In this document: piece by piece, positions 25,701 through 62,019 of the stretch
How the letters are laid out: the number at the start of each line of letters is the position of its first letter
Numbering within the stretch: the first letter of the stretch is position 1
Assembly: GCA_032718475.1 (NCBI GenBank)
Contig: JAUCBJ010007129.1
Span: 1 to 64,000, forward strand
DNA from: Nemertoderma westbladi
Taxonomy: Eukaryota > Animalia > Xenacoelomorpha
Length of the DNA: 64,000 nt
Direction: 5' to 3'
Position numbers and translations under genes: made by a program
The notes under the pieces: model-generated
Databases searched by the model: none
What the model was told of the DNA's origin: nothing
Seen by the model: the letters and a program-made list of their open reading frames with translations, nothing else

Positions 25701-25858
25701 TTGGGATGCCAAATAGACGAATTTGCGAGGAAATAGTCGCACCGTCCCTCAACGTCCCAAGTAAACCAGTGACTCGCCCCATTAGTCCCATATCGCGAGC
25801 AAAGTCACCTGTGCGCAGTTTTCGAGGACGCGGCAGGGCTCGATCTACTAAGCGATAA
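22712..25858 (+). CDS. ORF3 of A: 1048-aa accessory protein with a DEDDy-like 3'-5' exonuclease domain (~24050-24900)
   Basis: ExoI FYDNEG; LPKMVRNMILDKTVVKVGSGVREDL (WRN/Mut-7 ExoII signature); YVDTRPL; ExoIII-like YLAIE. Homologous to ORF3 of B2. Confidence 0.8.
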   Translation: MEKGTQGEPRWGYDIQEEAAAPFERFGAKDYTIFGIKELSESTAKLARTKYDSNVLKRRQNALNERIESLRQTFNELYPYDALCDTGDISEDPDTEISRLYHTMQYLKAHEPMPAVRDEFDGMHLYRRTRGDDRETKEAFSVYKLYYQCGSCMREQRNAIPMRLNKENPEPILARCSNHQQLRYQEGGYPLSNPYHSFAMTGPKAGETVIYPPKVVEPDVFELTLDEANQSTREKKEALSLYRAYKAFEKGEMEEWGGRLASLPCHWTSHDQTSAKEMTPEVFESINFAQNVIQRLQIASPERPREMQPYSTSATKPLSTTLNFPISIPVRQDTTYEIPIVDHPEIISNLEFLPAVVFSDMSKIYDLRRHITQKVVNNVPPHIQDFKELDRAGADIAPSNLKGYLTKTIRLWIGIGTFESDTDIAADWRGKVIRFDEDKDIEKIWQPSEELLDEWTRTFRSFQENGYMFYDNEGGSHQQSLTSKTIQIRAADGVLHVFSRQRSDKRMPIPPANTKRHHLITDIVKKMDQACNIDARMLPKMVRNMILDKTVVKVGSGVREDLISDFAGMTDSDDRLPTPYVDTRPLILWSIEQGYFREYNTQKTGTGYISYLLFNWDYKEGKRNKYIETYGEGDTPDMSEFESQLKWRGCVYWAITSPPRAVLQYYLAIESSVNVCLIADIVSRTLKGHPLCLGEDHTFYMEGRIRTDVFRRFLEPFYNSDAQCNAFTRAGFSIFRDVYLRCAGSLIERPSMFTLLPYEGERIVEITDESRQTRAPIGHLGDEFEVTTTIADDPLEELLEIERNLRLPHDSGFRVVREYLLQIHPDNKNTWNFQKVVNRITYGEFDRFRTEKRNKGAWLTVAWAYRAAFYHKRIRASVFEEEEVLEATNISATPVAPSARHPREDGQGRIIRVQKVGQQLKKIINVEERKGVEPTIRVTRDTVSLPREPVGGSGHTPADQQGAQATLGSASSAFREFPDVLPTVATTDRSRGIGRGFGMPNRRICEEIVAPSLNVPSKPVTRPISPISRAKSPVRSFRGRGRARSTKR

Positions 25859-26747: not shown

Positions 26748-28685
26748 TATAGAATTATATTCCCTAAATGCCGTGGATTTTCAAAATTTTATTTTATTCG
26801 AATTAACTTTGTAAAGATTGCTTTGAGTTCTCATTAGTATTGGTTCTATCTATTGTGTATCTATCGGTCAAGTGGTTCAGTAGCTCAGTTGGTAGAGCGT
26901 TGGAAATTATATGTGTAGTAGGTATCGAGTTCGAATCCTAGTAAGTGCGAATTATTTTTTGTGCAGAATTTCAACTCATTTAAATTAACCGCTACAAATT
27001 AATTGCATTTGTCTGTACCAATAAGGCTGTAGTTATTTGATTGTAACCAATGTCGTGCAAGTTATATATTAGCTGGACCAATAAGCTATCTTTAAAACCT
27101 TGTTAGAACCCATAGAACAATCGAGAATTTTCTCGATTGATTGCAGCACAAATTTAGTATATAAAGGTGCGATTCGTTCATTAGTTATCACTCACACTAC
27201 CTTATACTTCAATCTTATATCTCAATCTTTCTCAGATTATCTTATCAATATTCTGTCGTGCTTAGTTTATTCTCAGATTACATTGTATTATAATTGTGTC
27301 TTCTGTAATAAAGTCAGAATATTCTCTCAGCTTTTCTGTTTTACTATGAATTCACTACGGTGAACAAACTCAGGGACAGGATGGCCGGCTAGAGATCGGG
27401 CCGCAGCAATGAACGGGAACATCACGGGAATGTAGACGAGAGACAACCCGCAATACCATTTAAAGTTATTCGCCCATCGCCTGAAAGGTTAGACAGCGTT
27501 CGATCCTTGCTACCTAAGTATAAGACCAAAAGATCAAAAGGTAGAAGTAGTGACACGCTGCAAGCCTAAAATTACATCATAGGGACTGTACTGTCTTGAT
27601 TCAGGAAAACCCACAGTAGACCTTCACATTCCTACGGGGGGGGGAGGGAGAGAGAGCAGATACTAGTACGCAGATAGGACGTAGGCACACCGGTACAAGG
27701 CATACACATTGGTTAGGGTGCAGCAAACTGTACGCTTAACTCTTTGCTAAGTACAGGTGTGTGTGCGACTATTTGCCGTACAACAGTGTCCATTACATCA
27801 GAACTTGTAGGCTAGGGGGTTGCTGTGTTTTCACCTGAATTGGGATTGTACCGTTCAGGCGGTAGGGCAGTTTACGCTAGGCGCAAATAAATTGAGGCTA
27901 TCAGGGATATACTAACATCTACCGTGTCCCCGCCAACGCCCTAATAGGAAGTTACCCGGACTACCTGGGTGACTAAAATTCTAGATAGGAGCCAGGATAG
28001 CTATTAGTACCTGTACGCCTACAGTAGTAAACTAACACATCTCTTCTTAGTATCAGGGACCTGGTACCTAAAATTGCCGAATTCTGGGCGTAGTATTAAC
28101 CTTATGCCTGAATTTGAGTCCTGGAAATACGCAAGAGGGGAAGGAACCTTACCATTCGTGAGTATTGGACCTACAAGTTACAAAATTAGAATATTCGTAA
28201 AATGCACACCGTACCCAGTAATTATATATGTGAAGGAGCAAAACTGTTTTGACCGTTCAGAATTAACACACGCGCGTTAGAAATTATTTACACCTCGAAA
28301 TATATAAAATTAACTTTGTCCGTACTGTGCTTTGCCCGCTAGTTAGACATCTCCAAATCTGCTCTATACCTAGCTAGCGTCCCTTTGCCTAACCATATAA
28401 ATCACACCGCGGCAAAGTATACGAGCCCCTTAGTCCGTCAGTGAGTCAGCCTGATTTTAGGATTCGCTGCGCGGGATTTGTTTTATCGAAGTTTGCCTGC
28501 TCGTAGACTGTTTTCTGCCTCACCGGTTATAAGAGATCGATACTGCAATATATTCGCTTACTTAGGGTTTACTGTTTTGGTGAGGAGGTCGGATTTATGA
28601 TTTGACTTACAAACTTTACAGTAGGATATTGCAGGTATTGTTACCGTCTCTTCCGATAGTAGGAATAGGCGTATCTCTTCAATTA
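26748..28685 (+). repeat. 3' LTR of A
   Basis: Near-identical to the 5' LTR, with a 21-bp indel near 27190 and few substitutions. Confidence 0.93.
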
Positions 28686-30112: not shown

Positions 30113-31386
30113 TGTTCGCGCTTTTAGACCTTTAGCAGTTTAACCTGCCAATTTTAATTGTCTTTTTTGTATATCAATTATTTAATGTACTGAAGTTACA
30201 TCAGCCGAAGCCAGCCTGTGCGCGACCATTCACCCACAGTTAAGGGAGACTGGATTCGGATGCTTTGATAGTGATTGCAGTGTAGACCTACTGTATTATT
30301 CGATTGATCGTTAATATATAATCTCTGACAATATATTTACTTTCGGGGAAATATTAACAGTTCCTTTAGGACGTGGCGCTTTAAGTATAAAACAGAGTTA
30401 TGACTTATACTAATCACAACTGGATGGCTACTGAGTTTCGTAAAAAGCGCATTCTTTAGGAGATGCTTTATTAACCTTCACACTACTTCACACGACTTCA
30501 CACTAGTTCACACTACTGCGCACTGATCTGCCGACCGTCACTGAATTTGATCATATATAAGGAGGATAGCAACTGACACATGTAGGGATTATGAAATAAC
30601 ATTTAATTCACACAAAAACCACTATAATGTAAGTCGCAGTTGCTACCGGTAAACCTGTTCCTCTAACCTTTAGTAATCAAGAAGATTGGGGGTTTTATGA
30701 TTATTCATCGGTATTCTCCAAATATATCAGCAATATACACCAACATAACACCAATTAATAACAGAATCAAATAATGCGGTGAACAGTCAGTATGTGTTAC
30801 TTATGCAGTGTTCCATGTGCAGCAATGCATGAATTGCGGTGTGATGCGGTAGTTGAATCGCGTTGCGCTTCAGTGATTCAGATATGAAGTATGATTCAGT
30901 TAATAGTTTTACGTTCTTGAAATCAAAGCCATCTGATGTTTCTGATGTTTAGGTCAAAGTCTGAAACTTCCAACACAGAAGTACAGAAGAATTTCCAAGC
31001 AGTTCTCTCGCTCAGAAAGGTAAACAAAGACCATAATGCATTGCGCGGTTTTACGTAGGCCTCTGTACAAGATAAAATGAAAATCGCTCTGATTGGCTGA
31101 GCTGAGCGAGCTGAACAAAGAGATGTTCCACGTTTACAGTAAATCAGCTGACAGATTTCGTCATCTGAGTTCCAGTCTTTTAGAGTATTAAGCGCATTGC
31201 GGTAAAAATGGCTTGTTATGTCCGCTAAAGCACCTATACTGCGCATTGTGGGGAAAATGGCTTGTTATGTCCGCTAAAACACCTTCACGGTACATTGCGG
31301 AGAAAATGGCTTGTTATGTCCGCTAAAACACCTACACAGGATATTGTGGCGAAAAATGACCTGTTATATCCGCAAAAGCTTTTACA
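30113..31386 (-). repeat. 3' LTR of B1
   Basis: TGTAAAAGC...GCGCGAACA with an adjacent PPT and ~52-bp tandem repeats in U3. Confidence 0.95.
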
Positions 31387-31460
31387 CCGCTCCCAGAAAA
31401 TGGGATTTAATTCTATAAAATATAATAAGTCACAGTCACAAGTCTAAAATATAAAAATAC

Positions 31461-33020
31461 TCTAAACAGTTAGTCCTTCTTACGCGAACGGCGTTTACGC
31501 AGTTTTTTGAGGCTAGCAAGAGTCCTTTTCTCTTTGGGGCGAGCCACTTTACTAGGAGGGCACAACTCCTGGGTGAAGGGTGCAATACAATTGCATCGGA
31601 AGGTTTAGGATTACGGTCGGTGTAGACGCTGGTCGAGGTACTCGGTTGATCAGTATTAACCTCAGTGGAACGAGGTCGAACAACCTTCAGAGCGTGTTTC
31701 AAGACAGCAGCTCTTACTGGTCCCTGATGATTCGTCTGCACGAGAGCGGTAGGTGGACCGTGTGTAGTGAGAAATTTCCTCGGTTTGATGGTTCTTTCCG
31801 ACTCGCGTTCTTGGGCTCTGTCGAAATTGATATGCTTCTCTTCGAGCTGATTTTCCTCCGCTTGTCATTGGAAGCATTCGTCCAAAACTCTTTCAGAGAG
31901 TAGGGTCGTCCAAGTTCGATATCTTCTTAGAGATTCTGGATTTCCCGATCGAACTGGGGTAAACCTAATTCTTTTACCGCTTGGACTTGCCGCTGCAATT
32001 TACGTTTATCTAAACAATCGTAAGTTCCTTTTCCAATCTTTTGTCGAATAGCGTCTAGCGCGTTTCATACAACGCTCTCCTCCACCTTGGTGACAGGTTG
32101 TATCGGGGTTAGACCGGGACGATTATACGGGTTGAACGGCGATATTAGGTGTCCGCGTCCCAATCCGGCTAGGTAAGATGGGCGAATATCTAGGGAGCCC
32201 ACAACCGGAGTGCCACCGACTAATTGTTCGGGTAATACTAGATCTTTGAACAATGAGTGCAGTTCAGGAGGATCCGTCATACTATTAGGATCAAGAGTCT
32301 GACATCTCACCAGGGAATGGGGATGCATGACCGAGTTTTCCGGAACTCTGATCATCGGTTTATTTAAGGATCGTTTGAGTTGAGCGAGCGTAGGTGATAC
32401 GTCGAACAAGTTTCGCTCGAAACTCCAGTAAATATAGCGAGTAAAACTGTGTTTAGCGCAACGTCTCCGCAGATGTTTATGTCTTTCCGTGTGTTGGTTG
32501 GGTCTAGGGCATTCATCGTAATAATACCAAAGTCGCACGTCTTGTAGGGGAAACACGGGTGATCTTTCTCCAGTTTTACTGTCTCTCTTAAGAATTCCAA
32601 ATATACGTTGAAGTCACTGCGTTTATCCGGTTCTTTAACGTCTTCTCTTTCGAGTTGGTTTCGAATAGAATTTTCGTGTTCGATTCTCAGTTTGTCGTTC
32701 CGACTCCGCTGGGTATGATATTAAAATAGGATCATTTCCCTTTCGGTGTCTACATCGTCCATATCGTGTAAATCGATAGGATGGCCAGTAGTTAAGAAGT
32801 CCATATATGTACCATTACGATGCGTATAGCGAGCGATGAATTTTCTATAGTCTAATTCACGCGTGAGCTGTTCCTTTGACATTGGCGGTTCGATATAACG
32901 GCCATCGTCTTCCGTAGTGGGTGGACTAGCTTCGCCACGTATTAAACTATCAACAAACGCTTGCAATGGTAGGGTATATCGCTCCCTGATACCAAGATCA
33001 TCTTCTATCAACTCAGTCAT
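31461..33020 (-). pseudogene. ORF3 remnant of B1 (N-terminal part and basic C-terminus; exonuclease deleted at ~31820)
   Basis: Collinear with B2 51805-50445 and 47860-47480. Confidence 0.85.
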
Positions 33021-35053
33021 AGCTGCTATATGAGTTAATCGATATTATAATTAATTATAATTAGGCTAGCGGTCATCGCTGCCTACCCCTCAATGCCCCC
33101 GGACAGCGCAAGCTCCTCAGCGATAATGTACTGTTGCCGCTGTGTCTTTCGCCAACGTAGTAGCTACACAACGATAACAATAACCAGCGCGAGTCACTCC
33201 ACTGTCCGTCCCAAGGGCTCAGAATTACTTCAGGTTCTTGCTACAGAAGTAGGGCTACTTTCACAACTGCGACTCGCTACTGCAAACACACTTTAGTAGT
33301 AACATTCACCTATAAACGCACAAATTCCACACAACTGTCACAAATTGTACACATTCGGGCCATTTGTCAGTTAGTCAAGTGCCTTCCAGAATGCCACGTT
33401 ATTATTATGTATCCCTGGATACTAGCAGTGTGCTATTTATTCCGTATGCTATTCAATGGGGCAAGCTTTTTATTGTTCTTTTAACTCACTTCTAATTCTA
33501 GCGTGGTTGTTGCCATGGTGACATTATGGAAAGCTAGCAGTAGAATTAGGGTAATTCTCATGCATACAGATCTGGGATGCTATTTAATAGTAATTCTTTA
33601 ATTGTCAATATTCCCCTTTATACATGATTTTATGAATTTTATCGGCCATTGACTATATATTGGAGATTCTCTCACGCTAATATACTTAATAGGGTGAATC
33701 TCCGCTCCCATGATCTATTAATTGATGGAATTTTGGGAATGTTATAAATTGTATAAAATGACAATTTATCAAATTCATGAGAGGATGTGAATTTAAATTT
33801 ATTCCCATAAAATTTTATTATTTAATATTAAAATAGACAATTTTATTCCAGAACATGTCTGGGGACTGAGATCCTTGATTCTAGGAAATTTGTCCTTTTA
33901 AGAGTATCGGTAAGTGCTACGATATCTTAATCGACTAGAATTTTTAAAGGATCTTTTTTTTAACAGATTTTGATTTATAGATTTTCTTGGTTTACAAACT
34001 CCTTAGAGTTTATTTGTATGCATTTACTCTATTATAACATTTGTTTTAATAGATTTTTATAAATATTAACTATTTAATATTTAAGATGGGCACCGATTTA
34101 TTCCAGAACATGTCTGGGGACGTTAACCACTGATTCTAGAATTTTGTCTTTCAAGTATATCGGTGGGTGCCGCGATATCTTAATCGACTAGAATTACAGA
34201 TGGTCAAAGGGTTTAACAGATTTATTTTGCGTTTTACGCTACTGTTAAAGGGACATCACGCTACTATATGTATTATTTAATATACGGTATGAGAGCAATA
34301 TTGCAAGAAGCAAAGTCAGTGAGAAGAGGCAAGTCGTATCCAAGGTCTACCCAGAGCTTGGTTTAGCCGAGACATGAGGATCTGAACTTTGCCTTCCTAA
34401 TACTCTACTTACCAATAATACTTGAGTATAGTAGGAGCTTTATTGTACTTTAATAAGTACGGACATTTCATCTTACTGTAGTCATGTATTTATAATATGA
34501 TATGGACAGTAAGGAAAGAGAAAAAGAATTATTTCTCGCCGTTGCACTAAATATATAATATAGGTAATTAAGTAATAAACACGAATATATATTGCACTAA
34601 TCTACTAAACAATCGCTAAAATAACATCCTACTAAATAAAATTAAAGAAAACGATTATAATAATAAAATTACGTAATAATACATACATAAATATAAAAAT
34701 AATAAAAATATATAAAATAATGTAGTCACACACCCACTCCAGACGCTGTTACGTTGGGGAGTCCCTAGATGTTTGTTGGATTAGGGAGGTGGTCGTGGGA
34801 AGAGTATCTTGCCTCCCACAGTCTACGGACAGTTCTCGGTCTCTTTCCAGTAAACATAAACGACTGGGTGATTGAGTTGTTGTGTTTCGAATACAATTCC
34901 AGATTTCTTCTTCGTCCTGGAATAGTGACGATAGAAACACCAAGTTTGGTTATCGGTGAGGAGATCAGTTGTATTTTCCTCATCGTATTGGTTAATATCG
35001 TCATTATCTGAGGAGTATGGTGTTCCCTCAGTTGTGGTCTCTCCCTCACTGAT

Positions 35054-38000
35054 TTATTCTTCCCATTCACTCACCTGATGTACTTGTTCGTTAGGTAATC
35101 TTTCCATGAGTGTTCTACAGGAAGGTCCAGTGAAGTACCAACCTACTCTCGTTCTTCCCGCATATGTTTGTAATGGTTGCGGTCGAGCAGGCCGTTTTTC
35201 TAATGTTTCAAGTGCCTCATGCGCATTTTGGCCGAACAATATCTGCACCCCTGGGTAGTCGGTATTGAATCTAGGGATATCATGCTGCTGGGTAAAATGG
35301 TCTTCATCCCAGTTGTAAGGTTCTACTTGGCTGGTAGCAAAGTTCTTTATCGCCACCATTTTTACTGACCTTATGCTATGTTCTCCTAGTTCATCCTGGG
35401 GAGTGGACAACGCGCCTACATAGTAGTCTGTAGCTACTGTGGATTTCCAAACCTGCATAATTCCTGAAAGGTTCAACTTAGTTCGGAACTTGGGTTGTCC
35501 AGCAAAGATGTCTTCGGCTAGTTCTTTGTCGATGAATGTTCTTGTGCTGCCGGAGTCAAGGAGGGCGTTTACTATAAAACTCTTACCTTTCCCATGGACT
35601 CTCAGCTGCACTACTGGGAATTCCCGGATTCCGACGTTGGAAGTTGGCGCTTTCCAAGATGGTTGTTGGTCCGGAATCGTCAGTTTTGCTTCGTTATCGG
35701 TTTCAGTCTCATACGTAAGCGCTCGATACACTGCGGTGTTTATCATATAACAGGATTCGTTTTCATCGGAGAATTCGTCCATGTAAAATCCTTCCATCTC
35801 AGAGCTGTGGTCAGTGTCGTTCTCATCACTGAATTGGACATGTAGTTCGGGCTTACTTACCTGACTCGTGCGGGTTCTGTCAAATTCTGTGTGCAGTAAG
35901 ACATGATGTTTCGCGCCGCACTTAGCGCACCTAGCATCTGAGTAACAGGTCTGCCGTTGGTGTCCTCGTCTGAGGCAATTATAACACAACCGCTTATCCG
36001 ACATGACATCACGTCTATCTTTAAGAGATTTCTTTAAGAATTCATCACAACCACTCAAGCGATGGGGCCCGTCGCACAATACACATTTGGGCTTGATGTT
36101 ACTTACTTTAACCTGTGCTGTGTGGTGCACACTTGTTCTTTCCTCGGGCTTTCTTCCATGAATTCTCTTAGGAGACGTGGGAGGAGTTGTTGTTACCTGT
36201 TCTCTCCTGTCACTGATTCGAAACTTATATTTACTTACGTTTTTTTGTGTTTTGTTGACATAGTAAGATCTTTCGGTGTCTTTCCCGCTGTTCTCCTCGT
36301 GGGAGGTTTGGCTTTCGCCGTCGTCTGTATAACACACTGGTGTTACCTTTCTCCTAGAAACGGGTTTTTCACTTACCTCACTTTCAGGAGTCTTCTCTCT
36401 AGACTGTTTTAGGAGTTGTAATCTTACCTCTCGGTTTAAGAATGACAGAAGGTCCATCATGGTTGGATCTCTATGTTGTTGGTCCATCAAATAGAGAACC
36501 TTTTTGTCCCAGCGAGTACCTACTCCACCCTTTGGCAAAGCTGATGCTAGGGCTCCTACAACCATAGAATTCTGGTATTCATGAGACTTACCCAACCAGT
36601 CTAATTGTCTACAGATCTCCTGAATCTCATCGGAAAACTCTATAATCCCTCTGCTAATACCTAGCTATGTTAGTCCTATTACCATACCTGATGTTTAGTG
36701 TATCCCAAACTTGTCTTAATCCATCTGGATGTCCAATAAACTTTAACGCCATTAACTTGGGAGGTCCTTCTAAGCACTCGATGAGGAGTCTAAGTTTCTC
36801 TCCGTTAGATAGTACAGAGTTCTGTATGTTATCTTTATAATATTCATTAAAAGGTAACCATTTCATCTCATCTCCATTGAACTTGACGATCTCTCCCACC
36901 TTTACCGCTTGACGGGCTTTGGTTCTAGCCATTTGACGCGTAAAACTTTCTTGGGCCATCGTATTATTTAATATCGAGTTATCGGTATATAAATTTATCG
37001 GATTAGGATCAGGTCTATCTGGAATATCATTATCAACAGGTTTATAATTATCCTTAATAGGGTTTACTATAGGAGTTTCTACTTCACTAGCAGTATAGAT
37101 GCGTGGAGGCTCCACACCTTGCGCATGAAATACTTCAGACCTAACAGGTTGACACATTGTTACAGGGGATGGTGGTATACCCCTTTGTATATTTACCAAT
37201 TTATTGCGTTCTAATGCGATACTCTGCTGCACTTCTTGCAACTCTAACCTACCCTCTCTTACTGTTCCCTTTAACTGCTGAACAGTCCCTTCCAACGCCC
37301 GGACTTGCTGGGAGGAACACACACGGTGTTCCCTCAGCTGACCGAGCAGGAGACCCATCTCCCGCCATCCCTCATCCACCCACTCTACCGCCGAAGCGGG
37401 AGCCGCCAACATAGTAGCGGGTAGACGAGGGACGACGGGCGACAAATCGACAAACCGGAACTGATTCAGGAACTGTCCTACTGGGCACAGGTAGTTTAGT
37501 ACTGTGCAAAGGGAATTTAGAGTTAGGTTCTGGAAGTACAGGTGTCTCTATCACAGAGGGGGTGGCTTCGAGAACAGGCCCAATTATTTCAGGCTCATCT
37601 ACTATAGTAGGGAGTCTTTCTACTCTAATAATTTGGTCTGTGTGTTCTGTACTACCTAAGTCTACACTAGCTAGTTGCCTTCTCACAGCTGGGGGCAAAT
37701 TAGGCAATTTCTGACGGTGGGGCGTTCTTCTACATCTGCTGGAACGAGATCTATTTCCTCCGCCTTCAGGATCTGTTGTATCGCCTTCATCAGATGATGT
37801 AAATCCCTGTCTCTTGGGAGTAGATCGACTTATTATCTGCATCTGACTAGCTGTTATCTGGTTATTTAAGTAGTCTTGCTTCTCTTGAAGATTTTCCAAC
37901 TCTAGTTGGGTTGTCTCTTCAGATGCCCTCCGTTCTGCTTTTGCCACTGCCTCTGCCGCCTTTCTTTCAACTTCTGCAGCTGCCGCTGTCGCTTTTCTTT

Positions 38001-39107
38001 CCGCTTCTACCGCCGCCGCTGCCGCTTTTCTTTCCGCTTCTACCGCCGCCGCTGCCTCTTTTCTTTCAGCTTCTGCCGCTGCCGATGCCGCTGCCTTTCT
38101 GTCTTCTATCTGCTTTTTCTTTAGTTGCACTTCTTGGACCCTAGCGATGCGGATTCTTTCATCAAATTTAGCTCACTCCGTGGCTAACATTTCCGCATCT
38201 AACGAGTCTAACACAAATTTGGCTCCCTCACTATTAGGGTGAAATCCAGCTAGCCGTCTCCTTAACTCTTTGTCACCTATAAATCGTTGATAGTCCGACA
38301 GATAGATGTCAATAGCGTCTTTCTTCTGAGGTTTCTCTGATGTCGCTTCGCTTTCCACCTGAGAAAAGGTAGCATCTGTTGACTCTCCGTGGGTCGCGCG
38401 CTCAGTTAGGGGGTTGTTGAAACAGTTGTTCCTCTAATCGCTCCAAAGAGCTGAAGAATCCCTGTACATATCCTGCTGCCGACCTCTTCCACACAGCTGG
38501 ATCTCTAGTGTCCTTTACCACTCCCATCCTGTATAAGTCCTCCCAGGCAACTTCCGATAAGTTAAATGGGAGTCCGGGTCCGGGGAAGTTCCATTGCGTC
38601 TCGACAATAGACCTTAATTCCTCCATCGTATATCCCACATAACTGTCCTTGGTCGATCGCTTACTTCTCGCCCAATCGATTTGATGTTCTTCCACCGCAA
38701 TCAATACTCTAGTGAGTACAGCTCCCAGAAGAATTAGAAGTGGATCTGGATAAACCGCTTCTGCCATCTTTGCTCCGATCTCGGGTGTCAACTCTACAGT
38801 GTCTGAACTACTGGAGTTATCGGGCCGTTGAGAAATAAGTTCCCGGTTCGGGTGCTGCTGCTGCTGCCTCTTGGTCCCGCTTGACTTGAGCCCTAGTGCC
38901 TATGATAGACCAATGGTGCTCTACTAGCCTAGGGTCTGACACTACTACTGTAGGGATGACCTTTCTTACAGTAGGAGGGGACTTGGACTTTGGTCTCAGA
39001 CGTTCTATACTCTTAGCTGAGTCCCAGATCTTTTTAAGACCCTGTCTAACACTCATTCTAACACTTTCTAAGAGACTATCTGACAGTGTTTGTTTTGTGT
39101 CAGACAT
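35054..39107 (-). pseudogene. gag: gag-protease of B1 (frameshifted)
   Basis: KFNGDEMKWLPF..EKLRLLIECLEG, CVLC/CYNC/CAKC knuckles, ALLDSGS. Confidence 0.9.
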
Positions 39108-39254
39108 GTTTGATTGTACAGTTGAATGCCTACTACTATAACGACAGTTAAAGCAAGTCTAGTAATTCAGTATCAACTGCAAGCCTAGTAATTAATTACC
39201 GATACTGTTACTCAGTGTAACGTGATATATATACAGATATATAATATGTTAGAA

Positions 39255-39630
39255 TACCGGTATACACTTATAGTATATATAAGAATTATTACAGACTAGA
39301 ATTAGTCACAGAATACCGGTATATAATTTCAGCATAAATTTATATAAATATATATAATAAGCCTACCGTAAATACCAGTATACAGCATACACTTATAGTA
39401 TATATAAGAATTATTACAGACTAGAATTAGTCACAGAATACCGGTATATAATTTCAGCATAAATTTATATAAATATATATAATAAGCCTACCGTAAATAC
39501 CGGTATACAGCATACACTTATAGTATATATAAGTATTTATACAGACTAGGATTAGTCACAGAATACCGGTATATAATTTCAGCATAAATTTATAGAAATA
39601 AATATAATAAGCCTATCGTAAATACCGGTA
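39255..39630. repeat. ~125-bp unit x3 in the B1 leader
   Basis: ATACACTTATAGTATATATAAG...AATACCGGTA is repeated; B2 has one unit. Confidence 0.8.
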
Positions 39631-41208
39631 ATGTCAATTATTTTAGAATAACTGAATTTCTGAATTTTAGGGTTACTTTCCTTTACTTTATTACTGTTAT
39701 TAAGCAGTAGCCCAACTGATATTAAGACCTAATTAATGTATAACAGGCCTACTATTTTATAAATCGGTTTGAGTTGATTTATAATATATATATACCCGTA
39801 TAATGGGTTTTTGTCAATGTTTGAAATAAATGTTATTATTTCTGGTGAGGAGTCACTACACAGAAGCTGAACGCTCTCAGTGGAGTGCTTCCTGTTAGAC
39901 ACTAAAACAAATAATTCTACTTTACTAAGTTACTTATTACTACAAATTACATACAATTACTGTGTTGTGTGAGATTACAATCTCTAAATAAACACCAAAA
40001 ATTACACATACAAATTTTAGGATAATTTTACAGGAAATCTACAAACCAGCCTAACAAGGAGTTAGAATTTCTGGTTCTTACAAACGGACAGGAAACTACG
40101 GTATTTGATAATAATTAAGCAGTAGTAAATATATTGCTTTGTCCAGATAAGAAAATACAACCGTCTGATGACTTATAGTCTTTAGCTCTACAGCTCTATA
40201 AGTACTACGTTATGTACCCGGAGTGTCCTTACCTAGAAGTTAATTACCGCAGCCAACCAGAGCTAACGTGCCTATTAACCACTTTACAACACAAATATAC
40301 TGCCTATACACTAATTACCTTCGGAAAGTACTGTACACTAAACCCTAAATTAGGTACAAGTACTTATACAACAAATAACCAGCAGTTAAATATACTTATA
40401 CAGCTAAAAGAACCACGGTATCTGCTGGAATAACTAGAGCATAAAATCACCAGTCTTTACCTACGCCAAGCAGCCCTGATGTAGTACCGGGGTTAATTTA
40501 ACTATAACGGTATGTATAACAAGCACAATTACTGTAGCAATAAACTTGGGGAGTTATGTAGGTTGCGAATACTCGCATAGACTCGTGAATAATAAATATT
40601 ACGCTACCCGTGCAGACTACACAAACAAAATACAGACCAAACGCTGGCAGACTACTATCAAGCCTTAATAAACTACAGTATATGCAGACTCCGAAATGGT
40701 TAGTTAGTAGGCGTTCTAACCGAGTAGTACGACTTATTCTTTTGGGAGGGATTTACCTTACAGCACTGGATGCCCCCACCTTCCTAACTAGTACTTTATC
40801 AGACATACACTCTATACACACTGCAATCTCTTCAGACCCAACAACAGTCAGACAACAATCCAGCCTACAAATTATTTATACAATCTGAGCAGGCTTACAC
40901 GCCTTCTGCTCAATATTACTTACAGATAAATAAAACTGACAGAAATAAGTAAAATCCCAATAAAAAACCAGGGCTGCAGTCCCTGATTAAATATCAAGAC
41001 CTACCGGTATATAATTATCAAAATCGAATAATACCTGTTCGTACCTGTAAGTACCGGTTCAGGTAGTTGGGCAGTTAGGCCTACAGCTTACCGTTCGACC
41101 GGTACCTTCGACTTTATTGCCTACGTTTAAAACTTTAGCGAACTTTATAGCGAGTTTAAAACTATTAATGTTCTTACAAGAACATTAGACAATTTGTAAA
41201 ACTATTAA

Positions 41209-42441
41209 TGTTCGCGCTTTTAGACCTTTAGCAGTTTAACCTGCCAATTTTAATTGTCTTTTTTGTATATCAATTATTTAATGTACTGAAGTTACATCAG
41301 CTGAAGCCAGCCTGTGCGCGACCATTCACCCACAGTTAAGGGAGACTGGATTCGGATGCTTTGATAGTGATTGCAGTGTAGACCTACTGTATTATTCAAT
41401 TGATCGTTAATATATAATCTCTGACAATATATTTACTTTCGGGGAAATATTAACAGTTCCTTTAGGACGTGGCACTTTAAGTATAAAACAGAGTTATGAC
41501 TTATACTAATCACAACTGGATGGCTACTGAGTTTCGTAAAAAGTGCATTCTTTAGGAGATGCTTTATTAACCTTCACACTACTTCACACGACTTCACACT
41601 AGTTCACACTACTGCGCACTGATCTGCCGACCGTCACTGAATTTGATCATATATAAGGAGGATCGCAACTGACACATGTAGGGATTATGAAATAACATTT
41701 AATTCACACAAAAACCACTATAATGTAAGTCGCAGTTGCTACCGGTAAACCTGTTCCTCTAACCTTTAGTAATCAAGAAGATTGGGGGTTTTATGATTAT
41801 TCATCGGTATTCTCCAAATATATCAGCAATATACACCAACATAACACCAATTAATAACAGAATCAAATAATGCGGTGAACAGTCAGTATGTGTTACTTAT
41901 GCAGTGTTCCATGTGCGGCAATGTTGACTTGCGGTGTGATGCGGTGTGTTGCGTAGTTGAATTGTGTTGCTTTTCAGTGATTCAGATATGAAGTATGATT
42001 CAGTTAATAGTTTTACTTTCTTGTAATAAAAGCCATCTGATGTTTCTGATGTTTAGGTCAAAGTCTGAAACTTCCAACACAGAAGTACAGAAGAATTTCC
42101 AAGCAGTTCTCTCGCTCAGAAAGGTAAACTAAGACCGTAATGCATTGCGCGGTTTTCCGTAGGCCTCTGTACAAGATAAAATGAAAATCGCTCTGATTAG
42201 CTGAGCTGAGCGAGCTGAACAAAGAGATGTTCCACGTTTACAGTAAATCAGCTGACAGATTTCGTCATCTGAGTTCCAGTCTTTTAGAGTATTAAGCGCA
42301 TTGCGGCAGAAAATGGCTTGTTATGTCCGCTAAAACACCCACACGGTACATTGCGGAGAAAATGGCTTGTTATGTCCGCTAAAACACCTACACGGTATAT
42401 TGCGGAGAAAATGACTGGTTATATCCGCAAAAGCTTTTACA
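41209..42441 (-). repeat. 5' LTR of B1
   Basis: Highly similar to 30113-31386. Confidence 0.95.
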
Positions 42442-44318: not shown

Positions 44319-45366
44319 TATTTTATTCTTTAATTGTCAAGCTGAAGTAAAAAACCTTACCGGTAGGTATGCCAGTACAGTACGATACAAATACTAAAAT
44401 AAAATGCAATTGACCATTAGACGTTGCATGCAATCAGTGATCAGCTGACGGCTGTCAGCTGATCAGTAGGTTTCGATCCAATGGGGGCTTTCTCAAGTAG
44501 CTAGTGCTAGAAAGGAGACAATAGATAGTAGTTCCCAAGGGAGACGGGACAGTAATGTGAAACAAGGTAGAAGTGTATCCGTCTAACCACTGGGAAGCAG
44601 CACCTCAAACTTGCGCCAATCACGTTTCTGCTTGTTAATAGCTGGCTGGCGAGTGCGTATATAAAACATTTCTAGTTTTTAGAGCCAATCACTGCGCCAA
44701 TTGGCCAATTGGCCAACTGCGCCAATCACTGCCATCATTGAAACATCCAGTTCCAGATATTCTGGCTTCTAACGTCGTGTATTCATTTGCTTGTCCCTCT
44801 TGTAAGGGGGAATATGTTGGACATACCATCCAACACTTATTTGAACGCGTTAGACAGCATCAAGACGGGTCGGCCAATGATGGTACGAACAAGGCAAGAC
44901 AGTTCACAACCATATCATGACGCACCGCGGGGAGCCCAACACACATTGGTTGACCGACTGGCGAGAGTTGTTCAAACACTTCAAGGTTATTGCACGGCAC
45001 CCTTTGCGTCCTGTCCTGCAAAAACTAGAAATGTTTTATATACGCACTCGCCAGCCAGCTATTAACAAGCAGAAACGTGATTGGCGCAATTTTGAGGTGC
45101 TGCTTCCCAGTGGTTAGACGGATACACTTCTACCTTGTTTCACTTTTTGGGAACTTCTATCTATTGTCTCCTTTCTAGCACTAGCTAATTGAGAAAGCCC
45201 CCATTGGGGCGAAACCTACTGATCAGCTGACAGCCGTCAGCTGATCACTGATTGCATGCAACGTCTAATGGTCAGTTGCTTTATATTTTAGTATTTGTAT
45301 CGTACTGTACTGGCATACCTACCGGTAAGGTTTTTTACTTCAGCTTGACAATTAAAGAATAAAATA
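44319..45366 (+). mobile_element. Penelope-like element 3' fragment with an inverted pseudo-LTR
   Basis: GIY-YIG remnant NVVYSFACPSCKGEYVGHTIQHLFERVRQH ... LEMFYIRTRQPAIN. Inverted arms at 44319-44680 and 45021-45366. Confidence 0.85.
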
Positions 45367-46255: not shown

Positions 46256-47430
46256 TGTTCGCGCTTTTAGACCTTTAGCAGTTTAACCTGCCAATTTTAG
46301 TTGTCTTCTTGTTTATAAATCGACTTTAGCCTAGACCAATTATTTTATGTACTGAAGTTATATCTGCCGAAGCCAGTCTGTGCGCGATCATTCACCCACG
46401 GTTAAGGGAGACTGGATTCGGGTGCTTTGACGTTATTGCGGTGTAGACCTACTGTATTATTCGATTGATCGTTACTATATAATCTCTGACAAATATATTT
46501 ACTTTCGGGGAAATATTAACAGTTCCTTTAGGACGTGGCGCTTTAAGTATAAAAACAGAGTTATGACTTATACTAATCACAACTAGATGGCTAATGAGTT
46601 TTGTAAATAGCGCATTCTTTAGGAGATGCTTTATTATCTGTCACACTACTGCACACGACTTTACACTACTGCACACTGATCTGCCGACCGTCACTGAATT
46701 TGATCATATATAAAGAAGATCGCAACTGACACTTGTAGGGATTATGAAATAGCATTTAATTCACACAAAAACCACTATAATTTAAGTCGCAGTTGCTAGC
46801 GGTAAACTGTCCTCTTACCTTCAGTAATCAAGAAGATTGGGGGTTTTATGATTATTTATCGGTATTCTCCAAATATAACAACATATCCAACAATATACAA
46901 CAATTAATAACAGACAGTAAGCAGAAGTAAATAATGCAGTGAAAAGTCACTGCATTTATTTATTGGTTTAGTATGATATGCAGTGTCCAGCAGGTTCATC
47001 AGGTTGATATGACAATATGAGAATAGATTTACGTTCCGTAATCAAAGCCATCAGATCTTTAGGCAAAGTCTGAAACTTCCACCACAGAAGTAACAGAAGA
47101 TTTCCAAGCAGTTCTCTTCGCTCAGAAAGGTAAACAAAGACCGTAATGCATTGCGCGGTTTTACATAGGCCCTTGTCCAACATAAAATGAAAATCGCTCT
47201 GATTGGTTGAGCCGAACAAAGAGAGGTTCCACGTTTACAGTAAATCAGCTGACAGATTTCGTCATCTGAGTTCCAGTCTTTTAGAGTATTAGGCGCATTG
47301 TTGGCTTGTTATGTCCGCTAAAGCACCTACACGGTACATTGCGGAGAAAATGGCTTGTTATGTCCGCTAAAGCACCTACACGGTATATTGCGGAGAAAAA
47401 TGACTTGTTATGTCCGCAAAAGCTTTTACA
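46256..47430 (-). repeat. 3' LTR of B2
   Basis: Same termini as the B1 LTRs, with an adjacent PPT. Confidence 0.93.
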
Positions 47431-47508
47431 CCGCTCCCAGAAAATGGGATTTAATTCTATAAAATATAAAAAATCACAGTTTCTAAAATATAAAAATACT
47501 CTAAACAG

Positions 47509-50500
47509 TTAGTCCGTCTTACGCGAACGGCGTTTACGCAGTTTTTTGAGGCTAGCAAGAGTCCTTTTCTCTTTGGGGCAAGCCACTTTACTAGGAGGGC
47601 TATAACTCCTGGGTGAAGGGTGCAATACAATTGCATCGGAAGGTTTAGGGTTACGGTCGGTGTATCCGCCGGTCGAGGTACCCGGTTGATTGATATCAAC
47701 CTCAGCGGAGCGAGGTTGAACAACCCCCAGAGCGCGTTTCAAGACAGCAGCTCTTACTGGTCCCTGACGAGTCGTCTGCACGAGAGCGGTAGGTGGACCG
47801 TGAGTAGTGAGAAATTTCCTCAGTTTGATGGTTCTTTCTAACTCGCGTTCTCGGGCTCTATATTCATAGGGTCGTCTATGAACTTCCTGTAGTTCTGGAT
47901 GCGAGTTGATGAACAAGTCACCATATTCAGGATCTTGATGGATGAAGTTGATCAAGTTATAGGAATTAAGATCATTGGGATTAATGTTCCTGAGATATTT
48001 ACGAACAAATTTGGTCGAAATATTCTCGCCAACACGCTTCATTAGTTCGTAACTCGGTGTGCGAGATTTTTGTTCAACGGACGCGAATAGATACGGGTGA
48101 AACGCATAAACTCACTCATAAGCATGTCCAGGGTAATATCCAGACGTGACTCACAATGTAGATCCGCGTTCGCTTCCCAGGCTCGAATATAGTGTAAGGT
48201 AATCATTTCATCTACGCTTTCCAGATCTCGGTTGAAAGGGCAATCAAAACTTGCATGTCCTTTAAACTGACAATGATGGCATTGAGTCATAAATTGGGGG
48301 CAGACTGCAAAAATGTGCAAGTTATTGAGTCTACAATATGCACAATAGATCTCCATCGTAGGTTGTTCATGGAAGTAGGAACAGGGTACGTTGGAGTCCA
48401 CCGGGGTGAAATGGTCTCGAGATGCACACAATCGACAACGTTTCCTAGAAACATAATTGGCATGCCGATAATCGTAAGCGGTGAGGCATTGTGGACCTTG
48501 ATACCATTCCAGGACGTAGTCATTGTCACTGCTCCGGGGCGCTGTGGGCTGGATCTCCTCGGATTCTAAGCATATTGGTTCGTCTTCCAATCGCATAGCT
48601 GAGGTAGGTGTAGCTGTCTCCTCAAGCGAACCCAGTGTCTGAACTTCCACGATAGAATAACCCGTGGGGATTCGGGGTCTTTGTATAACAGAGGAATGTA
48701 AGTTCTGTATACCAACGTCCTTGAAAATGGCGAATCCAGCGCTGTCTAACTTCTCAGCAGCTGAGTCTCTTAGGCTGAGCTTGGTCAGAGCGCGGTCCTT
48801 GAACTGACTATCAACGTTACGGAACGGAGTCAGAAAGCGCCTAAAGCATTCGAAGCGGATGAATTTATTGTGTTCATCTAGCTTGGCGAGTTTGGTTCCA
48901 AGTATCAAGGGATGGGTGCGTATAGTACGACTGCACACATCGGCTAGCCAACCGGCAAGTGTGGCGTTCTCGAAGATAGTGTATATAGCTAATGAGGGAC
49001 AAAGGGGAACACTCATGAAGCTATACACGACGCCAGGTGTGGTCAATGGTCCATCGAAGTATAATAGAGAATAATGATCTCCATATACTTGTTGATAGTT
49101 GATAGGGTTTCCGACTTTGAAATTCCATCTGTATTCTTGGAAGGCAAGATGTCCGATGGATGTTCGTTGTACTTTATTGATGCCGCTGGGTGTATTGGCA
49201 TACATAGTTCGGAAGAAACCTCGGCCTTCTGCCCAGGGAGCAATCAGCTGGGTGTCTACGAAAGGATATGGGATATTCTCCATATTCCTGAAGTCGTTTT
49301 GGAGATCTCCATAAACAGCTGAGCCGAATTTAAAGGATTCTTTCGTTAAACAACATCTCGAGCACTGGCTGGGGTAACATCGATCCATCTATACCCATGG
49401 CCAGTTTACGCTCAGTATCGGTGACGTAACGCTGTGCGAGTTCGAATTGTCCATGTCGGAGTTTCTTTTGTATCTCGGTGAGAGTCTCAAAGGAATAATC
49501 AATCACATCGGAACACGCTCGAGTAAACACGTGAGTAGAACCAGCTAGCCCTCGTATATGTATCATGCGCGACGCGCATGATACATATACGAGGGCTAGC
49601 TGGTTCTACCCACGTAGTTCCCAGTTCTCCAACAGGAATGCTACCTTCGTTATCGTAAGTGACAACTCCATACATTTCGATAACGTTAAGAGTTTCGTTC
49701 CACTCTTTAGTGGCGTTTTCTAGGGTCATCCCCACCGGATGCCACAAGGTGGCACATTCGCTAGCGTTAGGTAGATCCCTATACTTCAGATATTGTGTAG
49801 TATACGTCTCTACATCTCCATATCGTTGTATTCTCTCTTCCTCGAATAATACGTCGAGATTCCAGTGGACTAATCGAGTTTCAATAAATCCATCGAGATT
49901 ATACGGAGGCATTATATCCTTCTCTATTCTGGAAACATTGTAGGGCTTTCTGAATGAGTTTACTTTCACTAACTGATCCAGATGTTTCTGCAGTTGTTCA
50001 AGTTCGACAAGATCGAGGGGATTTATTAGTGGTAGAAACCTTAGACTATGTGTAGGATCTTCCGGTATTACCATATAATATTGAGTTAGATTGACATAAT
50101 AAGGGTGGTCTTTGATCCCATAAAACGAGTTCGGTAAAGGTCTAGCGCGTATGTTGACCTCGCGTACCATACGACGGACAAGATCTGCTCGATTGTCCGG
50201 AGGTTCAACGAGTATACCGTCGATACGAGCGGCCTCGATTGGCGGACGTTGCAACATAGGAGCGTCAGCGATAAGATCACGAGATCTTAGGTTGATATCA
50301 ACCGGTTGGGGTTGTACCGTGGCGAAGAGTTTGTCTCCGAAATGGGGAACCATCGAGGGATGACGGATGGTTTTGGAATAGAGATCAGTCATAAGGATTT
50401 GAGCTTCAGGTTGGGCTAAAGCTGCTTCTTCTCTCTCACCCATTTCGATGTGTTTCTCCTCGAGCTGATTTTCCTCCGCTTGTCATTGGAAGCGTTCATC

Positions 50501-51805
50501 TAAAAACTCTTGTAGAGAATAGGTTCGTCCAAGTTCGATGTCTTCCTCGAGGTTTTGGATTTCTCGATCGAACTGGGGTAAGGCCAATTCCTTTACTGCT
50601 TGGACTTGCTGCTGCAACTTACGTTTCTCCAAACAATCATAAGTTCCTTTTCCGATCTTCTGTTGAATAGCGTCTAACGCGTTTCGTACAACGCTCTTCT
50701 CGACTTCGGTGACGGGTTGTATCGGGGTCAAACCGGGACGATTATACGGGTTGAACGGCGAGATTAGATGTCCGCGTCCTAATCCGGCTAGGTAGGATGG
50801 GCGAATATCTAGAGAGCCCACTACCGGAGTGCCACCGATTAATTGTTCGGGTAACACGAGATCTTTGAACAGCGAGTACAGTTCAGGAGGATCCGTTATA
50901 CTATTACGATCAAGAGTTTGAGGTCTCACTAAGGAATGAGGAGGTCTGACTGAGTATTCTGGAACTCTGATCATCGGTTTATTTAAGGATCGTTTGAGTC
51001 GAGCGAGCGTAGGTGATACGTCGAACAAGTTTCGCTCGAAACTCCCGTAAGTATAGCGAGTAAAACTGTGTTTAGCGCAACGTCTCCGCGGATGTTTATG
51101 TCTTTCCATTTGCTGGTTGGGTCTAGGGCATTCATCGCAATAATACCAAAGACGCACGTCCTGTAGGGGAAACGCGGGTGATCATTCTCCAGTTTTACAA
51201 TATTCCTCCATTTGTTCGAAGCTTTCCGGGACAACAGGTAGCAGTCGATCGGCGGTAAGATAAATCATAGTGAAATAGAGCCGTTTGAGTTCCATCATAG
51301 GGTCATGATGTATACCTTGAGGATATCGAATTTCTAGATTTTGTTGACTGGCTATATTGAGATATGTTTCTCTCAAGAATTCCAGATATTCGTTGAAGTT
51401 ACTGCGTTTATCTGGCTCTTCAACGTCTTCTCTTTCGAGTTGGTTGTGAATAGAATTTTCGTGTTCTATTCTCGGTTTATCGTTCCGACTCCGCTGGGTA
51501 TGATATTTAAATATAACCATGTCCCTTTCGGTGTCTACATCGTCCGTATCGTGTAAATCGATAGGATGACCAGTAGTTAAAAAGTCCATATACGTACCAT
51601 TACAATGCGTATAGCGAGCGATGAATTTTCTATAGTCTAATTCACGCGTGAGCTGTTACTTTGACATTGGCGGTTCGATATAACGGCCATCGTCTTCCGT
51701 AGTGGGTGGACTAGCGTCGCCGCGTATTAAACTATCAACAAACGCTTGCAATGGTAGGGTATATCGCTCCCTGATACCAAGATCATCTTCTATCAACTCA
51801 GTCAT
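47509..51805 (-). pseudogene. ORF3 of B2: CxxC..CxxH region, DEDDy-like exonuclease, Zn knuckles, basic tail
   Basis: TYDNEG (49643-49660), MLPQPVLEMLFNERIL/KFGSAVYGDL, FVDTQL, YTIFE; then CRLC..H, CAYC..H..C and CHHC..H..C. Several frameshifts and stops. Confidence 0.8.
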
Positions 51806-53516
51806 AGCTGCTATATGAGTTAATCGATATTATAATTAATTATAATTAGGCTAGCGGTCGTCGCTGCCTACCCCTCAATGCCCCCGGACAGCGCAAGCTC
51901 CTCAGCGCTAATGTACTGTCGCCGCTGTGTCTTTCGCCAACGTAGTAGCTACACAACGACAACAATAACCAGCGCGAGTCACTCCACTGTCCGTCCCAAG
52001 GGCTCAGAATTACTTCAGGTTCTTGCTATAGAGGTAGGGCTACTTTCACAACTGCGACTCGCTACTGCAAACACACTTTAGTAGTAACATTCACCTATAA
52101 ACGCACAAATTCCACACAACTGTCACAAATTGTACACATTCGGGCCATTTGTCAGTTAGTCAAGTGCCTTCCAGAATGCCACGTTATTATTATGTATCCC
52201 TGGATACTAGCAGTGTGCTATTTATTCCGTATGCTATTCAATGGGGCAAGCTTTTTATTGTTCTTTTAACTCACTTCTAATTCTAGCGTGGTTGTTGCCA
52301 TGGTGACATTATGGAAAGCTAGCAGTAGAATTAGGGTAATTCTCATGCATACAGATCTGGGATGCTATTTAATAGTAATTCTTTAATTGTCAATATTCCC
52401 CTTTATACATGATTTTATGAATTTTATCGGCCATTGACTATATTATTGGAGATTCTCGCACATTAATATACTTATAGGGTGAATCTCCGCTCCCATGATA
52501 TATAAATTAATGGAATTTTGGGAATGTTATAAATTGTATAAAATGACAATTTATCAAATTCATGAGAGGAGATGAATTTAAAATTTATTCCCGTAAATTT
52601 TATTATTTAATATTAAAATAGACACAATTTTATTCCAGAACATGTCTGGGGACTAGGATCCTTAATTCTAGAAAATTTGTCTTTTTAAGAGTATCGGTAA
52701 GTGCTACAAATATCTTAATCGACTAGAATTTTAAAGGATCTAAATTTTAACAGATTTTGATTTATAGATTTTCTAGAGTTAACTTGTAAGCATTTACTCT
52801 ATTATATTTGTTTTAATAGATTTTTATAAATATTAAATATTTAATATTTAAGATGGGCACCGATTTATTCCAGAACATGTCTGGGGACGTTAACGACTGA
52901 TTCTAGAATTTTGTCTTTCAAGTATATCGGTGGGTGCCGCGATATCTTAATCGACTAGAATGGCAGATGGTCAAAGGGTTTAACAGATTTATTTTGCGTT
53001 TTATGCTACTGTTAAAGGGACATCACGCTACTATATGTATTATTTAATATACTGTATGAGAGCAATATTGCAAGAAGCAATGTCAGTGAGAAGAGGCAAG
53101 TCGTTTCCCAGGTCTACCCAGATCTTGGTTTAGCCGAGACACGAGGATCTGAACTTTGCATTCCTAATACTCTACTTACCAATAATACTTGAGTATAGTA
53201 GGAGCTTTATTGTACTTTAATAAGTACGGATATTTCATCTTACTGTAGTCACGTATTTATAATATGATACGGACAGTAAGGAAAGAGAAAAATAATTATT
53301 TCTCGCCGTTGCACTAAATATATAATGTTAAGTAATTAAGTAATAAACACGAATATATATTGCACTAATCTACTGAATAATCGCTAAAATAACATTCCAC
53401 TAAATAAAATTAAAGAAAACGATTATAATAATAAAATTACGTAATAATACATACATAAATATAAAAATAATAAAAATATATAAAATAATATAGTCACACA
53501 CCCACTCCAGACGCGG

Positions 53517-54677
53517 TTACGTTGGGGAGTCCCTAGATGTTTGTTGGATTAGGGAGGTGGTCGTGGGAAGAGTGTTTTGTCTTCCATAGTTTCCGGATAG
53601 TTCTCTGTCTCTTTCCAGTAAACATAAACGACCAACTGGGCGATTGAGTTGCTGTGTTTCGAATACAATTCCAGGTTTCTTAAAGTTACGTCGCATGACG
53701 ACGAGTTCTACCGATCGCACTAAACCATCATCGGATATATGAGTCTCGATGATACGACCTGTCTGCCACCGCTTACGTAGAAGATCTGATTCCACAATAA
53801 GGACCATGTCTCCGGCGCTGACGTTTTCTTGCTGCGCAAACCACTTGGTTCGAAGTTGTAGCGTAGGCAGATAATGTTTTTCGAAATGGTCAGCGAAACG
53901 ACGGGATAATAACTGCATAAGTTGCCAAGTTTGTCGGCAGTATTCGTCTCCGTCCATGATTTCCGATCGTGGGAGCATGGCTACAGGTTTCTTCAGTAGG
54001 AAATGCGTGGGTGTTAGCGCTTCTAGGGAGTCGGGACTCGATGAGACTGGCATAAGCGGTCTCTCGTTAAGATAGGCGGCAATTTCTTCCATTAACGTCC
54101 GCAAAAGTTCGTCGGTGAGATACGCGCGGCACGGCACTATAAAGTGAAATGCGGTCTTCACGCTCCTTATTAATCTCTCCCAACTTCCTCCCCACCAAGG
54201 GACGTCGGCGGCGTTGAAGGTCCAGCTAGATGCTGTTACCCTTAGCTGATCGTCCACCTGTCTTTGGTTCCAATCTTTAATGTAAGCCTTGATCTCATTA
54301 TTGGTGCCAATGAAGTTCGTTCCCTTATCAGATCTCATCGTGTTGCTAGTTCCAAAGCGAGCGATCTGTCGGCGTAAACTCAGTATGAAGCTGTTGGTAG
54401 ATAGATCATTCACCATATCTAGATGGATCGCTCTACAAGTCAAACAGACAAAGATGACACACCATTGCTTGACTATAGTCCTAGCACGATAGACTTCAAT
54501 AGGGCCAAATAAATCCACACCGGTATTAGTAAAGGGTGGTTCATAGAAGCTTACTCGTTCCCTAGGTAATTCTGCCTCTCGCTGTGTTAAAGGCCTACTG
54601 AATGCTTTCCTACAGGGTATACAGTTCCTAAGAACTTGGTTCAGAGCTCTACGGGGTTTATGGAAATAATAGCGAGT
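53517..54677 (-). CDS. Integrase core of B2
   Basis: DLFGP, SDKGTNF, WERLIRSVK, LNERPL, LTPTHFL. Confidence 0.92.
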   Translation of the reverse strand, partial: TRYYFHKPRRALNQVLRNCIPCRKAFSRPLTQREAELPRERVSFYEPPFTNTGVDLFGPIEVYRARTIVKQWCVIFVCLTCRAIHLDMVNDLSTNSFILSLRRQIARFGTSNTMRSDKGTNFIGTNNEIKAYIKDWNQRQVDDQLRVTASSWTFNAADVPWWGGSWERLIRSVKTAFHFIVPCRAYLTDELLRTLMEEIAAYLNERPLMPVSSSPDSLEALTPTHFLLKKPVAMLPRSEIMDGDEYCRQTWQLMQLLSRRFADHFEKHYLPTLQLRTKWFAQQENVSAGDMVLIVESDLLRKRWQTGRIIETHISDDGLVRSVELVVMRRNFKKPGIVFETQQLNRPVGRLCLLERDRELSGNYGRQNTLPTTTSLIQQTSRDSPT

Positions 54678-56918: not shown

Positions 56919-56992
56919 CTCTTTAGCTGAAGCATTGGCCGTAAGACGCCGATGTAGTTGTGCGATTCTCTTCTCCGCTAAGGGTCGATTAT

Positions 56993-61659: not shown

Positions 61660-62019
61660 GTTTGACTGTACAGTTGAATGCCTACTACTATAATGACAGT
61701 TAAAGCAAGTCTAGTAATTCAGTATCCACTGTAAGCCTAGTAATTAATTACCGATACCGTTACTCAGTGTAACGTGATATATATACAATATATTAAAATA
61801 CCGGTATACACTTATGGTATATATAAGTATTATTATAGACCAGGATTAGTTACAAAATACCGGTATATAATTTCAGCTTAAATTTATCGAAATAAATATA
61901 ATAAGCCTATCGTAAATACCGGTAATGTCAATTATTTTATAATGACTGAATTTCTGAATTTTAGGGTTACTTTCCTTTACTTTATTACTGTTATCAAGCA
62001 GTAGTCCAACTGATATTAA

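Follow-up and report, generated by a model that had tools for sequence, protein, structure and literature searches.

Pairing between the primer-binding site and the LTR suggests self-priming in BEL/Pao retrotransposons of Nemertoderma westbladi

In element A, a BEL/Pao retrotransposon of Nemertoderma westbladi, the primer-binding site (PBS) that adjoins the 5′ LTR is perfectly complementary to a site within the element's own LTRs. This PBS–LTR pairing is a real, conserved feature, as documented by its position, exactness, covariation and spread among related elements. We propose, with a probability of roughly 0.65, that it serves self-priming of the Tf1 type, in which minus-strand DNA would be primed by an LTR-derived RNA cut at the end of the duplex.

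Four BEL/Pao elements (A, B, C and D) were identified within the window, the whole 64,000-nt stretch of DNA that was analysed (Table 1). The Pfam domains PF05380, PF03564 and PF18701, found in B and C, identify their products as Pao-type Gag-Pol, whose domains run from gag through protease, RT and RNase H to integrase. For the C RT–RNase H, the top-ranking named relatives, at 41–43% identity, include those of corals, sea anemones and sea urchins, pointing to an animal host. Element A, which is flanked on either side by a CCCCT target-site duplication, contains PF03564 and protease-like parts only. Relative to B, it is missing approximately 3.6 kb at 34909-34940, comprising RT, RNase H and most of integrase, and neither the RT region of B nor that of C finds a match within it; its assignment to BEL/Pao is therefore based on its 87–95% DNA identity to B across the internal blocks they share. 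Element B has lost both its 5′ LTR and its PBS, and its 3′ LTR lies at 47430-46256. Element C possesses a purine tract, and the sequences around it hold no matching copies of a target-site duplication.

Several further features of the elements were observed. The LTRs of C end in TA rather than CA, as do those of the related loci L020 and L055, and those of C start with TA as well. Within C, segments of gag-pol are duplicated (9475-12059 at 14598-17160, and 13285-14600 at 17161-18476) while the long frame stays open (9475-18476). Past its integrase, C encodes an extra 1085-aa ORF (22601-25858, plus strand), to which the element B frames at 48642-49382 and 51038-51409 (minus strand) are related (31% identity, E 1e-25); by eye, its residues ~440-640 resemble a DEDDy 3′–5′ exonuclease. 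The U3 of both C LTRs contains a tRNA-like stretch (~5905-5975 and ~26875-26945, plus strand) with presumed A-box- and B-box-like motifs, called by neither ARAGORN nor Rfam. Additionally, the leader of D includes a 280-bp duplication (446-724 and 159-436, 87% identical), a 43-bp near-perfect palindrome is located in B at 49529-49615, and an inverted repeat with arms of about 350 bp and a 339-bp spacer lies between A and B (44319-45366).

Table 1. Positions of the four elements and of their paired sites in the window
Feature	Position	Strand	Remarks
Element A	42441-30113	minus	two LTRs, 96.3% identical
A, 5′ LTR	41209-42441	minus	1233 bp, TG...CA
A, predicted self-primer site, 5′ LTR	42004-42016	minus	795 nt before LTR end
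A, possible intron in LTR, past primer site	41421-41763	minus	inferred; donor- and acceptor-like motifs conserved in A, B and D
A, PBS	41196-41208	minus	13-nt perfect complement of primer site; no spacer, no TGG
A, second copy of LTR end GAACA plus 12 nt of PBS, leader	41157-41173	minus	PBS copy starts at 41168
A, internal region	31387-41208	minus	gag and protease-like remnants
A, 3′ LTR	30113-31386	minus	1274 bp; purine tract just before
A, primer-site copy, 3′ LTR	30900-30912	minus	same letters, GTAAAACTATTAA
Element B	46256-62019	minus	sister of A; encodes RT, RNase H, integrase
Element C	5777-28685	plus	LTRs 98.1% identical; long frames with Pao domains
C, 5′ LTR	5777-7690	plus	1914 bp, TA...TA ends
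C, predicted primer site	6634-6644	plus	1046 nt before LTR end
C, PBS	7691-7701	plus	11-nt perfect complement, no spacer
C, 3′ LTR	26748-28685	plus	98.1% identical to 5′ copy
Element D	2260-1	minus	5′ LTR and leader; coding part absent from window
D, 5′ LTR	1021-2260	minus	~72% identical to A
D, predicted primer site	1782-1793	minus	aligned in register with the A site
D, PBS	1009-1020	minus	12-nt perfect complement of own LTR site

The 5′ LTR of A terminates in GCGCGAACA, which TTAATAGTTTTAC (41208-41196) abuts without a spacer, and GTAAAACTATTAA, the complement of this PBS, occurs in both LTRs (42016-42004 and 30912-30900). The perfect duplex halts exactly at the LTR boundary, since position 42003 is a C and the LTR ends in A, two bases that do not pair. 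A preliminary description of this DNA had reported a 13-mer other than TGG directly abutting the 5′ LTR, its perfect complement in both LTRs, and a duplex whose 3′ end falls on the LTR boundary, and all three observations are borne out. When the test was slid along A across 9,725 internal positions, complementarity of 13 nt arose once and of at least 11 nt 7 times. As a control, the flanks beyond the three 3′ LTRs match their own LTR over just 3, 6 and 6 nt.

Pairing of the same kind is present in D and C. Specifically, A differs from D at 4 of 12 positions in the primer and at the corresponding 4 in the PBS, and all four changes are compensatory Watson–Crick changes, an outcome with a chance of about 2.5e-5. 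The primer and PBS letters of C are unrelated to those of A, and for its 11-nt pairing the background is 10 of approximately 19,000 positions. The PBSs of A, D and C match the LTRs of the other elements over just 4–6 nt, and the 3′ LTR of B retains a variant primer site at 47032-47022. No TGG is located at the LTR boundary of A, C or D, and on sequence grounds priming by the whole 3′ end of a tRNA is excluded for these three elements, tRNA fragments being another matter. ARAGORN detected no tRNA genes in the window, and Rfam gave nothing credible in positions 1-48000. Extending the primers of A, C or D across a splice junction never improved on the contiguous match.

The pairing extends to relatives in metagenome contigs. 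Of 551 related stretches the best 80 were kept; 30 with direct repeats were inspected, and the 14 loci used are those whose LTR end could be fixed from both LTR copies. Two of the 14 carry a TGG..CGAGCC motif, and their own-LTR matches span 4 and 5 nt. Among the remaining 12, 10 possess a perfect 10–13-nt complement of their own LTR located 0–4 nt from the LTR end, compared with 2 of 264 cross pairs (sisters left out) under identical rules, the 0–5-nt spacer and the GTRAG..YAG consensus having been set post hoc. With a spacer of 0 and loose rules, a single clear match is left among the relatives (L035), and when any GT..AG is permitted, 18 of 272 cross pairs reach 10 nt. The count of 10 includes two choices made after the matches were known, namely a 2-nt shift of the ambiguous LTR end of L070 and the use of the L010 5′ LTR (10 nt) over its 3′ LTR (7 nt). 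The other two loci, L021 and L069, fail the strict pairing test; the L021 PBS starts with TTGG, pairs only with a non-consensus donor and may represent another tRNA type. A second set of 24 loci, which was hand-picked and includes many incomplete LTRs, yielded 9 self hits versus 19 of 552 cross pairs; two of these nine loci are sisters of loci in the first set, one of the two having its hit away from the PBS. Viral contigs contained no related loci.

In 4 of the 10 pairing relatives the primer site is contiguous, and in the other 6 it is formed solely across the junction of a GT–AG intron (GTAAG..YAG, 71–164 nt). In 9 of the 10, the primer site is followed 11–124 nt later by an A[AT]TAAA motif, which would place the site in R, and the LTR ends 86–203 nt past the site. 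Three loci (L019, L027 and L065) carry a TGG..CGAGCC PBS, which we take to be tRNA-Tyr-like. The letters TTCGA occur in the self-pairing PBSs of L002, L010, L016, L035, L061 and L080 as well as in the tRNA-type PBS of L027, a weak hint that self-pairing PBSs with TTCGA may descend from a tRNA-type PBS. Taken together, the complementarity is not lost in other elements, being kept in D through compensatory changes, in C with unrelated letters and in these relatives; combined with the Pao domains of B and C, this lends support to the earlier suggestion of tRNA-independent priming in a BEL/Pao lineage.

A tree of RT–RNase H was computed from 35 selected rows and rooted on one distant row. Twenty rows carry a self-pairing label, which 7 received through the post hoc scan; B stands in for A, which is off the tree without an RT, and for D, whose coding part is absent from the window. 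All 20 self-pairing rows fall into one 29-row branch (support 95/97), with the 3 tRNA-PBS rows outside. On a quick tree, exchange between tRNA-type and self-pairing PBSs takes 1 change, and exchange between spliced and contiguous primers takes 4. These placements make a single origin of the self-pairing elements likely, short of established, as an AU test did not reject joining B and C, both long branches, with the tRNA-PBS rows (p 0.087).

Copies of the element family were sampled from DNA contigs of the host's family in four runs; because these are contigs, PBS and LTR site are not linkable copy by copy, and run X5, of small share and guessed to be an RNA run, was left out of the evidence. 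Past the primer site of A, depth falls from 10,962 to 1,067 in X1 and from 20,758 to 1,415 in X2 (X1 and X2 being one sample), with a smaller fall from 5,790 to 3,391 in X3. Position 42003 is the start of 10 of the 32 pieces listed, from 178 in all. This fall in likeness to A fits a constraint ending at the predicted cut, and an indel peculiar to the A subfamily would look identical. Three rare PBS variants in the family contigs, again not linkable to LTRs per copy, retain just the first 9 or 11 nt, and no LTR variants matching them were found above a 2% threshold.

In Tf1, the first 11 nt pair with the PBS, and RNase H cleavage falls between nt 11 and nt 12 (PMC7175516). By analogy, self-priming in the window elements would begin with a transcript whose start coincides with the primer site or lies upstream of it, so that the site falls in R. 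The 11–13-nt site would then anneal to the PBS adjoining the 5′ LTR, with 760–1050 nt looped out, and RNase H of the element's RT, cutting as in Tf1 where the paired site ends on its 3′ side (42004/42003 in A), would release the paired RNA as the primer. Since A is missing RT and RNase H, it would need a helper that supplies these activities in trans. RT would extend the new 3′ end across U5 and the rest of R and then jump to the 3′ R, and plus-strand synthesis would finally copy the primer back into the PBS. In retroviral replication generally, the primer copied during plus-strand synthesis regenerates the PBS, and the joint, exact Watson–Crick change of primer and PBS would follow from such recopying. 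In many relatives the primer would form only once the LTR intron is spliced out, whereas it is contiguous in this window. The upstream exon of the six spliced relatives holds just 4–6 paired nt, so a transcript starting exactly at the primer would require a tiny first exon. Splicing of the possible intron in the A LTR (41763-41421) would cut the primer–PBS loop by about 340 nt.

The predicted duplex has a probability of 0.92–0.96 in A, D and C when the modelled fold is begun at the first base of the primer. When it is begun upstream, the D duplex is lost at 25 nt or more, and the A duplex falls to 0.60 at 60 nt and 0.15 at 150 nt. Weighing against a strict copy of the Tf1 mechanism, the duplex energies in the window elements are weak (-11.5, -11.6 and -15.6 kcal/mol), and the pairing spans 761–1046 nt, compared with 86–203 nt in the relatives. 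In addition, A and D share no conserved canonical poly(A) signal. Modelled long-range folding is weak evidence for or against self-priming. Extended pairing beside the core, suspected by eye in A, C and D, was compared with shuffles over 20 nt upstream of the core and 25 nt past the PBS, and it was no better than the shuffles in 13 of 14 tests, the exception being D at an uncorrected p of 0.045; no Tf1-like extended structure adjoining the primer–PBS duplex was found in these tests.

The self-encoded primer could instead act in trans or arise without an RNase H cut in cis, being provided by a second packaged genome or by a short or processed LTR transcript that ends at the site. We regard this as unlikely, while still the strongest of the competing explanations. 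The very long loop in the window elements and the high abundance of the family in the DNA runs speak for it, as does the arrangement of C, whose primer site is preceded by a TATA-like motif at 6188 and by an AATAAA at 6316, a second AATAAA following at 6891. If the upstream motifs are used, the C site would lie in U5, where a cis cut leaves no R for strand transfer, and priming in trans would be favoured. In the relatives, on the other hand, the site is followed by the poly(A)-like signal in 9 of 10 cases and so would not be a natural 3′ end. A variant of this explanation has the primer end trimmed by the product of the extra ORF in C and B, a possible 3′–5′ exonuclease: in the Atlas, its residues 430-830 have a feature score of 0.91 against a cluster of whose members 11% carry PF01612, a weak lead. 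Against such trimming, the ORF has no match in the best 80 of the 551 relatives and no relative in Pfam, PDB or the representative library, and its structure model is unusable (pLDDT 31).

Somewhat less probable again is that the helix has a structural or regulatory function, hiding or presenting the leader, while synthesis is primed by a tRNA half, another small RNA or some other RNA of the host. Host tRNA is the primer given for Belpaoviridae in the ICTV profile (PMC8742986), and half-tRNA priming is described for some Copia lineages in PMC6317226. However, a conserved host primer would hold the PBS letters constant, and these differ among A, D, C and the 10 relatives, each matching its own LTR only. 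The duplex moreover stops within 0–4 nt of the LTR end, the required starting point of synthesis, and all four changes between A and D are double Watson–Crick changes. A chance match, or a one-off inverted duplication in copy A, could draw on the AT-richness of the sequence and on the local PBS duplication in the A leader; it is nevertheless highly improbable, given that D, C and all but two of the 12 relatives show the pairing with different letters and that the backgrounds are 1 in 9,725 positions and 2 in 264 cross pairs.

The closest known systems are Tf1 and Tf2 of Schizosaccharomyces pombe, Tj1 of S. japonicus and the Tf1/sushi and Tcn1 groups, all Ty3/gypsy chromoviruses, which likewise have no tRNA site and carry beside the 5′ LTR a PBS of about 11 nt complementary to their own LTR (PMC7175516, PMC4600332 and PMC6317226). 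Unlike Tf1/sushi chromoviruses, the window elements have a Pol of Pao type (Pao peptidase and DUF1759 domains) rather than of Ty3/gypsy type. They also differ from Tf1 in that the site lies 760–1050 nt from the PBS with no extended flanking duplex found, that the primer is not established as the first nucleotides of the RNA, and that 6 of the 10 pairing relatives require a splice junction to form the primer. By sequence signature, then, the window elements resemble Tf1 self-priming, yet they fall outside the Tf1/sushi group. Also outside that group is the TAR lineage of plant Ty1/copia elements (Houba, Osr-1), for which PMC6317226 gives self-priming as a prediction from LTR–PBS complementarity; the TAR elements are Copia in plants, whereas those described here are BEL/Pao in animals.

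With tRNA-primed Belpaoviridae the window elements share the set and order of Gag-Pol domains, a purine tract and, in A, a 5-bp target-site duplication. The ICTV profile describes an 18-nt PBS for host tRNA-Arg or tRNA-Gly and LTRs of 0.2–1.2 kb (PMC8742986), and the BEL/Pao element Achilles has a tRNA-Tyr PBS (PMC4580426). In contrast, A, C and D have neither a TGG site nor an 18-nt tRNA-type PBS, and the C LTR, at 1.9 kb, is longer than the stated range. No report of self-priming in BEL/Pao was found in the literature searched, which included the accessible portions of PMC3601003, PMC8220671, PMC5443660 and bioRxiv 10.1101/2023.10.26.564294; most subscription papers, supplements, Repbase and GyDB lay outside its scope, and a prior mention is possible. 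A term look-up in the available text of PMC3118150, PMC554778, PMC6238403 and PMC8556966 returned no mention of a PBS.

Experiments have demonstrated self-priming in Tf1, and it has been put forward for Gypsy groups related to Tf1 and for some groups of Copia. We consider it slightly better than an even bet that a large animal branch of BEL/Pao has dropped tRNA priming altogether and primes from a site in its own R, with host splicing of an LTR intron building the primer in most members and others, such as the long-LTR elements of this window, keeping it contiguous across about 1 kb. The self-priming reading predicts an exact cut site as well as a primer-making splice junction. If it is true, each of the three LTR superfamilies would have evolved self-priming, which in this branch would depend on splicing in a switchable manner, and elements of this kind would be missed by annotation that demands a tRNA PBS. 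Such a branch of BEL/Pao would be independent of host tRNA for priming, and may thereby escape tRNA-fragment silencing aimed at the PBS.
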